DNA from: Octopus vulgaris
Lineage: Eukaryota
Direction of reading: 5' to 3'
NCBI GenBank assembly: GCA_951406725.2
Contig: OX597828.1
Span: forward strand, 52,018,001 to 52,082,000
Length of the DNA stretch: 64,000 nt
A program made the translations under genes and the position numbers. Each line of letters begins with the position of its first letter. The stretch's first letter is position 1. Below, piece after piece: positions 9,901-17,882 of this stretch. The notes beneath the pieces were generated by a model that made no database searches, was not told the DNA's origin, and worked only from the letters and a program-made list of their open reading frames with translations.

Positions 9901-10149
9901 CGACTTCATGACAAAATTTGACATAGGGCTGATAGAAACATTGAAATCATTACCTGGCCATGAACCAATGGTCTTTTTATCTCGGAAGAAACGAAGTATT
10001 GTCTCTGTGTCAGCTTTGCACAAATCTATGGCTTCAAATCAGCATCTAATTCTCGTCGATTGTTTCAAAATGTAGAGTAATTTTTTTTCTTTTTAGACGG
10101 AAGACTTAAGATTTCACTATACACATACGCTTATTTAATTGCTGGATAA

Positions 10150-10707
10150 GTGTATGTATGTATGTATGTATGTATGTATGTATGTATGTATGTATGTATG
10201 TATGTATGTATGTATGTATGTATGTATGTATGTATGTATGTTTGTATGTATGTATGTATGTATGTGTGTATGTGTGTATGTATATATGTATGTATGTATG
10301 TATGTATGTACGTACGTACGTATGTACGTACGTACGCACGTACGTATGTACGTATGTATGTATGTATGTATGCATGCATGTATGTATGTATGTATGTATG
10401 TATGTTTGTGTGTATGTATGTATGTATGTATGTATGTGTGTATGAATGCATGTATGTATGTATGTATGTATGTATGTATGTGTGTATGAATGCATGTATG
10501 TATGTATGTATGTATGTATGTATGTATGTATGTATGTTTGTATGTATGTATGTGTGTATGTGTGTATGTATATATGTATGTATGTATGTTTGTTGTATGT
10601 ATGTATGTGTGTATGTATGTATGTATGTATGCATGCATGTATGTATGTATGTATGTATGTATGTATGTGTGTATGTATGTTTGTGTGTATGTATGTATGT
10701 ATGTATG

Positions 10708-10741
<34 letters not shown>

Positions 10742-11124
10742 TGTATGTATGTATGTATGAATGCATGTATGTATGTATGTATGTTTGTGTGTATGTATGT
10801 GTGTGTATGTATGTATGTATGTATATATGTATTTATGTATGTATGTATGTATGTATGCATGTGTGCATGTATGTATGCATGTATGTATGTATGTTTGTGT
10901 GTATGTATGTATGTATGTATATATGTATGTATGTATGTTTGTTGTATGTATGTATGTATGTTTGTGTGTATGTATGTATGTATGTGTGTATGTATGTATG
11001 TATGTATGTGTGTATGTATGTATGTATGTATGTATGTATGTTTGTGTGTATGTATGTATGTATGTATGTGTGTATGTATGTATGTATGTATGTATGTATG
11101 TGTGTGTGTATGTATGTATGTATG

Positions 11125-11157
<33 letters not shown>

Positions 11158-11281
11158 GTGTATGTATGTTTGTGTGTGTGTATGTATGTATGTATGTATG
11201 TATGTATGTATGTATGTATGTGTGTGTGCATGTATGTATATATGTATGTATGTATGTTTGTTGTATGTATGTATGTATGTA

Positions 11282-11312
<31 letters not shown>

Positions 11313-11938
11313 ATGTATGTATGTATGTTTGTGTGTATGTATGTATGTATGTGTGTATGTATGTATGTATGTATGTATGTATGTGTGTATGTATGTATGT
11401 ATGTATGTATGTATGTATGTTTGTGTGTATGTATGTATGTATGTATGTATGTATGTATGTATGTATGTGTGTGTGTATGCATGTATGTATATATGTATGT
11501 ATGTATGTTTGTTGTATGTATGTATGTATGTATGTATGTATGTTTGTTGTATGTATGTATGTATGTATGTATGTGTGTATGTATGTATGTATGTATGTAT
11601 GTATGTTTGTGTGTATGTATGTATGTATGTGTGTATGTATGTATGTATGTATGTATGTGTGTATGTATGTATGTATGTATGTATGTATGTTTGTGTGTAT
11701 GTATGTATGTATGTATGTGTGTATGTATGTATGTATGTATGTGTGTGTATGTATGTATGTATATATGTATGTATGTATGTATGTGTGTATGTATGTTTGT
11801 GTGTATGTATGTATGTATGTATGTATGTGTGTATGCATGTATGTATGTATGTTTGTGTGTATGTATGTATGTATGTATGTATGTATGTATGTATGTATGT
11901 GTGTGTGTGTGTATGTATGTATCTATGTATGTATGTAC

Positions 11939-11969
<31 letters not shown>

Positions 11970-11975
11970 TGTATA
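10150..11975. repeat. ~1.8 kb compound (TATG)n microsatellite
   Basis: Direct reading; source of the HTYI/MYVC pseudo-ORFs. Confidence 0.98.
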
Positions 11976-12167
11976 CATACATACTTTATTTGCCTGTTAA
12001 CAAGGCAAATCAACGTTTAAATCTTCACAAATTTTGAAGCATGCTACTTGGAAGTATTGCTAGTCATATCCATCCTGAATCCACCAGTAGAGTATTGAGC
12101 ACTCATCCTCACTGTTTGACAGCGTGTGTGTGCGTGTGTGTGTGTAGATGTATAAATATATACATAT

Positions 12168-16622: not shown

Positions 16623-16662
<40 letters not shown>

Positions 16663-16667
<5 letters not shown>

Positions 16668-17447
16668 ATTACGTTATATAATTAGGCTTCAGTAAAATAA
16701 TTTACTTTACCACACACCGAACTTTTATTTTAGCTATTTCCGAAATATTTTAGCTATTTCCTCTACTATAAGAAAAGTCTCCCAGACAATGTTTTAAATA
16801 TACCGTAAATGGTCTTTTTACTTACTGAACACTACTTGGTAAAATTGATAATTAATAATTAATTAATTTTACCCTTTTATTATTGATAATATAATTCTCT
16901 CTCCCTGATAATAAACTACAGATCCCTCTGTAGGGACTTGTTGCTCTATAACTCACGTGGTTGGACGAGGGACGTTACAGAGTCTCATTCGTACTTTTTG
17001 AATTCGTTAGTACTAGCGGTCGAAGATGGTTTGTCTGGGATTACTCATATCATACGGGTATGTTCGATTTTTAGTGCTCTCAAATCCAAACCTAAAGAAA
17101 TCTTGGGCTGATGACGGAAATGTTGATCTCTATATCCAACTAATCCAGAAACGGCGTTCTCAAGTAATCGATGTACGTGTGATCTTTCGTTATTTTTGCC
17201 TCTATACCTGCGTGAATTATTTTTGAGTATACATTGTCTGGGAGACTTTTCTTATAGTAGAGGAAATAGCTAAAATTTTTTGGCTGCTATTTCTAAAAGT
17301 TCGGTGTGTGGTAAAGTAAATTATTTTACTGAACCCTAATTATATAACGTAATGTTTCAAATATACCGTAAATGGTCTTTTTACATACTGAACACTACTT
17401 GGTAAAATTGATAATTAATAATTAATTAATTTTACCCTTTTATTATT

Positions 17448-17449
<2 letters not shown>
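16663..17449 (+). mobile_element. ORF-less Penelope-like/retrozyme-like element with direct and inverted terminal repeats, inserted in (TA)n
   Basis: Inverted repeat 16663-16792 vs 17231-17357; direct repeat 16796-16886 vs 17359-17449; internal hammerhead motif; (TA)n on both flanks. Confidence 0.8.
17102..17164 (+). ncRNA. Type I hammerhead ribozyme motif
   Basis: Stem I CUUGGG/CUCAAG; core CUGAUGA 17108-17114; stem II GGA/UCC plus GUUG/CAAC; GAAA 17148-17151; short stem III AC-GGC-GU; predicted cleavage after GUU (17158). Confidence 0.8.
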
Positions 17450-17483
<34 letters not shown>

Positions 17484-17487
<4 letters not shown>

Positions 17488-17882
17488 AAACAAGTCAAGA
17501 TAGAAAATGCTAAAATAATTTTATAAAAAACATTTCAGTACCGGTTTCGGTCATTTTGAGACCTTTTCAACTGTAACGATTAAATAATTAAATTTAGAAA
17601 AATTAAAAGAAAGGTTTTTTTAAAGGAATATTTGTATAGTGTTCAAATATAAGTGGCATTCTGCCTCTCTCTGTCTCCCTTGTTTGCACTTGTATGTTCG
17701 AGGTCGTTGTATATATGTATATATATTCTGCGTGTATGTATAAATATAATCATTTATTTCGCTCAGTATGTTTAGCTGATGAAGGAAAAGTTTTCATTTA
17801 ACTAGACTAGAAATTGATCGTTCCTAAACTTCCTGAATAATTTATGAATTTCTATATGCCCGCTTCCTCGCTTTCAACAAAT

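Follow-up and report, generated by a model that had tools for sequence, protein, structure and literature searches.

The main finding of this work is the identification, in Octopus vulgaris, of an ORF-less 563-nt repeat of the non-LTR retrozyme type that was probably pasted into (TA)n runs by a Penelope-like enzyme with reverse transcriptase (RT) and GIY-YIG domains acting in trans. The repeat was recognised in the window, that is, the whole 64,000-nt stretch of DNA that was analysed (contig OX597828.1, positions 52,018,001 to 52,082,000 of the forward strand). The features of this copy, in window coordinates, are as follows.

16626..16662, no strand: left-flanking (TA)n microsatellite, the likely target (from the sequence)
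16663..16792, minus strand: inverted arm, a copy of 17231-17357, with its outer end at 3' start site 1 (from repeat comparison)
16788..16792, no strand: 5-nt overlap common to both arms, a junction of the microhomology type
16788..17449, plus strand: direct arm, made of the 563-nt monomer and a second tail copy; its outer end is 3' start site 2
16788..16886, plus strand: tail copy 1 (repeat B), the end of an upstream partial monomer, 97/99 identical to 17351-17449
16887..17449, plus strand: the one complete ORF-less monomer; four related monomers of 556-602 nt are colinear with it
17102..17164, plus strand: hammerhead motif of type I; stem III is palindromic and 2 bp long, and the cut is predicted after 17158 (GUU)
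17257..17450, plus strand: the most conserved 194 nt, a predicted multi-hairpin fold containing both start sites
17346..17366, plus strand: 3' start site 1, the terminus of 23/47 copies, its exact base blurred by likeness to TA
17351..17449, plus strand: optional tail of ~100 nt between both start sites; its far end (site 2) is the terminus of 23/47 copies
17452..17483, no strand: right-flanking (TA)n microsatellite
17487..17712, minus strand: a separate neighbour, the 5'-truncated 3' end of an autonomous Neptune-type Penelope-like element

The layout inv(A)-B-C-A-B given in a preliminary description of this DNA is present, since the inverted arm matches 17231-17357 at 117/130 positions (E 2e-44 to 4e-46) and the direct repeat (16788-16886 and 17351-17449) recurs at a 563-nt period. 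Repeat B, described there as 91 bp long, is indeed repeated and measures 99 nt, while the hammerhead at 17102-17164, the lack of an ORF (the longest stop-free frame is 73 aa) and the (TA)n on both flanks were all confirmed. Differences between the arms fall mostly inside one rearranged patch of the inverted arm (~16723-16761), a 16-nt duplication located exactly at the first conserved hairpin, which is suggestive of an RT slip at that hairpin. Just past start site 2, a pyrimidine tract followed by AG (16895-16920) resembles a splice acceptor and has equivalents in subfamilies B, C and D; a GT..AG spliced joint at this tract was not seen in the assembled contigs searched. Elsewhere in the window, positions 46178-49390 and 10106-12037 are occupied by very long microsatellite arrays of the (AAT)n / (TACA)n type, 2-3 kb in length.

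In our preferred model, which we hold to be likely, a Penelope-like enzyme, probably a dimer, would cut both strands of a TA run and bind the RNA at its conserved 3' fold; the two DNA ends would then prime cDNAs at different internal start sites, and these cDNAs would stop at variable points and be joined through a few matching bases. The window copy would combine a cDNA of 1.18 monomers started at site 2 with one of 130 nt started at site 1. Available text on the anole Poseidon protein describes an enzyme, predicted to be a dimer, that cuts and extends both strands, and a tail that corresponds to the stretch from one of two internal RT start sites to the other (PMC11167929). An inverted arm, a one-sided tail and a microsatellite bias have been described in Penelope-like insertions in general (PMC8557442, accessible portion).

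Copies, subfamilies and tandem arrays

A search of the 2.8-Gb genome with the window unit returned 2,459 first-look candidates, and the 40 that were scored are 89-100% identical to it. Exact matches to three motifs of the unit numbered 44, 83 and 275, with none for the controls, so that the family comprises at least 275 dispersed matches; the many ORF-less copies anticipated in the preliminary description are thus present, dispersed in the genome. A motif of the shared 3' region gave 8,847 matches (control 0) and delimits a superfamily, and weaker matches led to subfamilies B, C and D and to a long variant whose loop II is 20 nt longer. Altogether five monomer types of 563, 583, 556, 602 and 593 nt were obtained, which are colinear, 55-93% identical and ORF-less. 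The longest stop-free frames in the four related monomers span 62-106 aa, and a tblastn comparison of the monomers with three Penelope-like (PLE) proteins gave no match at E<=1.

Tandem copies occur in several of these lineages. The long variant, which is 93% identical, is represented by a dimer (L232) with two cores 583 nt apart, and subfamily B by a trimer (L123). A C-like array (L391-L395) is TA-flanked and 5'-truncated, contains four full units of 592-594 nt that lie 0-2 mismatches apart, and ends at site 1. Spacings of 557-594 nt are numerous among the first 100 of the 8,847 shared 3'-region matches; for the short variant, no same-strand pair 563 nt apart was present among the 44 exact hammerhead matches. 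Such arrays fit rolling-circle copying, and they also fit a homogeneous multimeric transcript or local amplification. Judged in silico, the family qualifies as a retrozyme, given its hammerhead, its lack of an ORF and its tandems with one ribozyme per unit. The window copy taken alone lies outside that definition, as it has one hammerhead only; with 1.18 monomers it is a monomer-class copy, in line with the earlier claim that somewhat more than one monomer had been copied. Assembled contigs of five runs, presumed to be RNA, span the unit, the tail-to-monomer junction and the cut site, and are uninformative on strand, ends and circles.

Two other repeated arrangements were noted. At L171 (C26:37556455-37557017), three subfamily-D 3'-region matches are spaced by ~197-200 nt, far below the monomer period. 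At L297-L299 (C4:129456000-129481999), a 5.2-kb segmental tandem duplication has at least 5 units that are ~98% alike; every unit contains a truncated two-armed copy together with a Poseidon-like ORF fragment that bears its own hammerhead-like motif. This C4 tandem was considered as a lead to a partner element and rejected, being a segmental duplication around a truncated copy.

The hammerhead motif and the nature of the template

The motif in the window consists of stem I (17102-17107/17159-17164), CUGAUGA (17108-17114) and GAAAC (17148-17152). Its 6-bp stem I, short stem II and 2-bp stem III with a palindromic loop are like those of known motifs, for which action as a dimer and low activity are expected; it differs from them in that GUU and an unpaired 10.1/11.1 are fixed in the window lineage and in the U3-A8 core of subfamily B (PMC4209133, as far as its accessible text goes). 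An Rfam scan did not report 17102-17164 at E<=5, and in the isolated motif the hammerhead is not the minimum-energy structure (z 0.32; +0.4 vs -10.6 kcal/mol). Such poor folding alone is expected, because a 2-bp palindromic stem III works in dimers (PMC4209133, same portion). Support for the motif comes from covariation across subfamilies and not from folding energy. Over 10 subfamily rows, 90.7% of cells are paired and 8/14 pairs have changed on both sides, namely five of the six stem I pairs, two in stem II and the C3-G8 pair, so that the conserved, covarying hammerhead looked for in the preliminary description is present in these 10 hand-picked rows. None of 500 shuffles reached the observed paired fraction or covariation score, a result that is not a probability since the rows are hand-picked and related, and structures slid along the alignment pair at 29-39%.

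The C.A mismatch at 17115/17147 is inherited as a subfamily state. It had been read as the product of CpG decay of a C-G pair, an explanation that had to be abandoned: 17147 is A in 49/49 subfamily-A hammerheads and in 34/34 subfamily-B rows, and is never G. At the opposite base, 17115, 40 of the 49 have C and 9 have A; in this set 30 loci were selected with C fixed. The equivalent pair is G-C in subfamily C and mostly A.C in subfamily D. The cleavage triplet also varies, being fixed as GUU in the window lineage, GUC in B and C, and mostly GUA in D, and the hammerhead core of subfamily B is U3-A8. Cleavage at GUU is comparatively weak, and a hammerhead with a U3-A8 core is viable; a literature search on GUU and C3-G8 hammerhead variants gave nothing useful. 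On the model we prefer, the hammerhead most likely acts as a dimer in multimeric transcripts, from which it would release monomers.

The template would have to exceed one monomer and to be continuous across the cut site, as would a ligated circle or an uncleaved multimer. Between these two the matter is close to even, and we lean slightly to the circle. It is quite conceivable, if somewhat less than probable, that the same enzyme with the same two sites always copied a linear, uncleaved read-through of a tandem master, the hammerhead being a passenger or acting late. In the accessible text of two studies, uncleaved RNA is the main in vitro substrate of the anole Poseidon protein (PMC11167929) and 8/9 Xenopus retrozyme dimers failed to cleave (bioRxiv 10.64898/2026.07.22.740005). 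A linear template is also favoured by GUU and the C.A or A.A mismatch, which are fixed in the young window lineage, and by the discordance of some arms at diagnostic sites. Against it, stems I and II and C3-G8 show compensatory changes between subfamilies of only 55-70% identity, which implies that the ribozyme has been under selection within a non-coding lineage, and the four-unit array is near-identical from unit to unit. A circle of this kind would not be strongly structured and viroid-like: folded as a whole circular unit, the repeat gives z -1.9, with 4/60 shuffles as stable.

Fixed 3' ends and two-armed insertions

Over 47 distinct sites, 23 3' ends fall at site 1 (~17346-17366), 23 at site 2 (~17449-17456) and one elsewhere, while 5' ends are scattered; 14/47 copies are longer than one monomer (the longest is 894 nt), and these are dispersed and TA-flanked. 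Since 46/47 copies end at either of two fixed 3' sites, repeat B is an optional Penelope tail lying between them and not an arbitrary overlap. For the same reason, the circularly permuted starts expected earlier were not obtained, as only the 5' ends scatter. The interval from site 1 to site 2 measures 101-105 nt in all five monomer types, and the tail in the two-armed insertions 99-105 nt. TA runs follow most 3' ends, as counted at family copies.

Both sites are included in the 194 nt that are most conserved, with 54% of positions invariant vs 20% upstream of the ribozyme. The consensus of this segment folds into several hairpins, with 6/50 pairs changed on both sides, and an ACCCT motif at a stem base precedes each start site. 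Modelled in this way, the 194-nt 3' fold is likely to be the structure on which the RT docks. In subfamilies C and D (L139-L198), many 5' ends gather at the first hairpin's base, which lies ~30 nt before the conserved anchor; this may be a site where the RT stalls.

Neither the 5' nor the 3' ends of the copies are set by the ribozyme cut, and the hammerhead is not needed for defining insertion ends. Of 83 5' ends in a set chosen to begin at the cut, 5 lie within 0-3 nt of it, and one copy (L235) is joined there. In a set anchored 55 nt downstream, 0/98 5' ends lie within 2 nt of the cut and 72/98 run past it; these 98 rows come from the first 100 of the 275 matches, and a few of them are affected by indels or segmental duplication. 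A pile-up of 5' ends at the cut is likewise absent in subfamilies B, C and D (28, 46 and 51 arms). One pile-up that lies 33 nt upstream of the cut is explained by the 20-nt loop II indel. Cleavage by the hammerhead was also not required in vitro by the anole Poseidon protein, according to the text available for it (PMC11167929).

We retained 75 two-armed insertions that have TA-rich flanks and both outer ends at a start site, leaving out complex inner rearrangements. The two outer ends lie at opposite start sites in 73/75; site 2 was used twice in the other 2, and site 1 twice in none. By group, opposite sites were found in 38/38 insertions of the window lineage, 5/5 of B, 14/15 of C and 16/17 of D; the window-lineage queries were without the tail, whereas those for C and D contained it, so that in the latter only the second arm is informative. 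The tail is carried by one arm in 32/75 insertions vs the other in 41/75. A tail at one end only of insertions was described previously (PMC8557442, portion available), and the 73/75 count turns this known one-ended tail into a near-strict rule. The two-armed layout probably records the way in which a Penelope-type enzyme copies the RNA onto each of the two ends of a DNA break.

With some exceptions, the two arms of an insertion were mostly copied from one RNA or from closely related RNAs. Across 29 window-lineage insertions, the arms agree at 198/220 non-CpG subfamily-diagnostic sites; the 22 discordant sites compare with 88 that random pairing would give and ~4 that an identical template would give. 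No discordance was found in 17/29 insertions, whereas 4/29 are discordant at two or more diagnostic sites, including L257 with 7/23. Since the 22 discordances exceed the ~4 expected for a single template, and 4/29 insertions show at least 2, some arms were copied from different RNAs or from unlike units. Raw divergence between arms is less clear, being below the family median in only 27/44.

It is improbable that the inverted arm arose by fold-back self-priming or by twin priming of the L1 type instead of priming by the second DNA end. Self-priming has been proposed for rotifer Penelope inversions (PMC3846280, accessible text), some junctions are near-palindromic, and 8/22 inverted pieces begin away from the start sites. 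Fold-back, however, would copy the first arm and so give it the same or a shorter outer end, whereas here either arm may bear the tail and the ends are opposite. L1 twin priming yields a non-overlapping 5' continuation, whereas the arms described here overlap on the template. At most arm junctions the arms also share 1-6 nt. Priming by both DNA ends remains the preferred reading of these insertions.

The mobiliser and relation to known elements

Candidate enzymes are abundant in this genome, in which intact 781-aa ORFs with RT and GIY-YIG domains and a CX4CxxC linker are numerous; autonomous elements of this type end in minimal hammerheads and have TA flanks and optional tails. The CX4CxxC linker was tied to the microsatellite targeting of Neptune elements by Craig et al. 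(PMC8557442, available portion). A young Neptune-type family with intact 781-aa ORFs, a coding-like region upstream and a repeat-rich 3' UTR was observed at L095:1445-3788 and many other places. The neighbour at 17487-17712 (minus strand) carries its own minimal hammerhead (17519-17584) with a U3-A8 core, and belongs to a family with ~65% protein identity to the 781-aa type and 1,995 candidates, the best copies being 97-98% identical. The optional tail of this neighbour family is ~37 nt long and ends in CACCCT, as at site 2 of B and C.

The window unit is without an RT and GIY-YIG ORF, and hence is not an autonomous EN+ Penelope-like element. Mobilisation in trans by a Penelope-type enzyme, already advanced in the preliminary description, is supported by the fixed 3' ends, the two arms, the TA flanks and the ORF-less monomer. 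An autonomous element sharing the 3' end of the unit was not found among 42 GIY-YIG loci (30 + 12) or in the flanks of family copies; scoring covered the best 150 of 6,136 GIY-YIG candidates, a small sample biased to Neptune-type elements. Family-like pieces beside GIY-YIG loci were considered as possible partner ends and discarded, as they are separate insertions in TA runs.

A different relationship, in which an autonomous Penelope-like element gave rise to the copies as mere truncated 3' ends or solo pseudo-LTRs, with local amplification in tandem, is very unlikely and largely refuted for this family. Their insertion footprints are identical to those of Penelope-like elements, a truncated end of just this kind lies next door at 17487-17712, and the same route was proposed for vertebrate retrozymes in the accessible text of a recent study (bioRxiv 10.64898/2026.07.22.740005). 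Yet at the 30 best loci, copies that pass the monomer start enter another monomer and never an ORF, and a tblastn search upstream of the family copies examined detected no Neptune-type ORF with matching orientation. The whole monomer is colinear in five types, and the dispersal and TA flanks of copies exceeding one monomer also speak against truncation with local amplification. The sequence upstream of the subfamily B trimer is single-copy. An ultimate origin from an autonomous Penelope-like element is nevertheless likely. Finally, movement by a LINE-type RT or a DNA-level mechanism can be all but set aside: LINEs have been named as alternative mobilisers (PMC7229834, available part) and a matching Penelope-type partner was not found among the loci examined, but the unit is without a poly(A) or simple-repeat tail of its own, has two internal 3' ends, and its head-to-head arms and TA targeting match Penelope-like elements of the literature and of this genome.

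The class of element is already known, and the comparisons that follow refer to the accessible portions of the sources. Like metazoan non-LTR retrozymes, the octopus unit is ORF-less and AT-rich, carries a type I hammerhead and occurs as monomers and tandems, and its size is inside their range of 51-972 bp (PMC7229834; bioRxiv 10.64898/2026.07.22.740005). Unlike them, it is mostly dispersed, 5'-truncated and often two-armed, the window copy has one predicted ribozyme, and loop II is long (26-55 nt). With EN+ Neptune-type insertions it shares the partial tandem, 5' truncation, the inverted 5'-truncated copy, the one-ended tail, two RT start sites, AT-rich or (TA)n targets and a hammerhead in the repeat (PMC8557442, PMC3846280, PMC11167929). 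It differs from these in that there is no ORF and the entire monomer acts as the pseudo-LTR, and its tail is ~100 nt long vs 30-40 nt described for Neptune-type elements. Pseudo-LTRs (pLTRs) and head-to-tail multimers are also found in non-autonomous Chlamys elements such as MRC1; in contrast to the octopus unit with its hammerhead, these usually share 3' sequence with an autonomous family and are mostly without hammerheads (PMC8557442). A cephalopod or octopus retrozyme, this family and the opposite-site rule are not described in the main texts of the openly accessible literature searched.

Penelope-like elements have been proposed as mobilisers of metazoan non-LTR retrozymes, and in the available text the case for this hitchhiking is made from co-occurrence and phylogeny rather than from insertion anatomy (PMC7229834; bioRxiv 10.64898/2026.07.22.740005). 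More tentatively, as a reading less likely than not, we suggest that the ~9,000 motif matches, with identity down to 55%, could represent a long-lived superfamily of circular-RNA parasites that has kept its covarying 194-nt fold for docking a Penelope-type dimer; this dimer would write the two ends of a TA break together, mostly from a single RNA and beginning at two sites 100 nt apart. If so, the octopus insertions would record how Penelope-like elements build inverted, one-tailed insertions, and would also show which class of enzyme copies the circles of animal retrozymes. The second half of the Penelope insertion process still awaits validation, and here a short non-coding RNA displays a countable rule (73/75) together with a compact conserved 3' fold. 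With the intact 781-aa elements that this genome also contains, the unit would be a ready minimal substrate for studying how two DNA ends are primed and how circles are copied.
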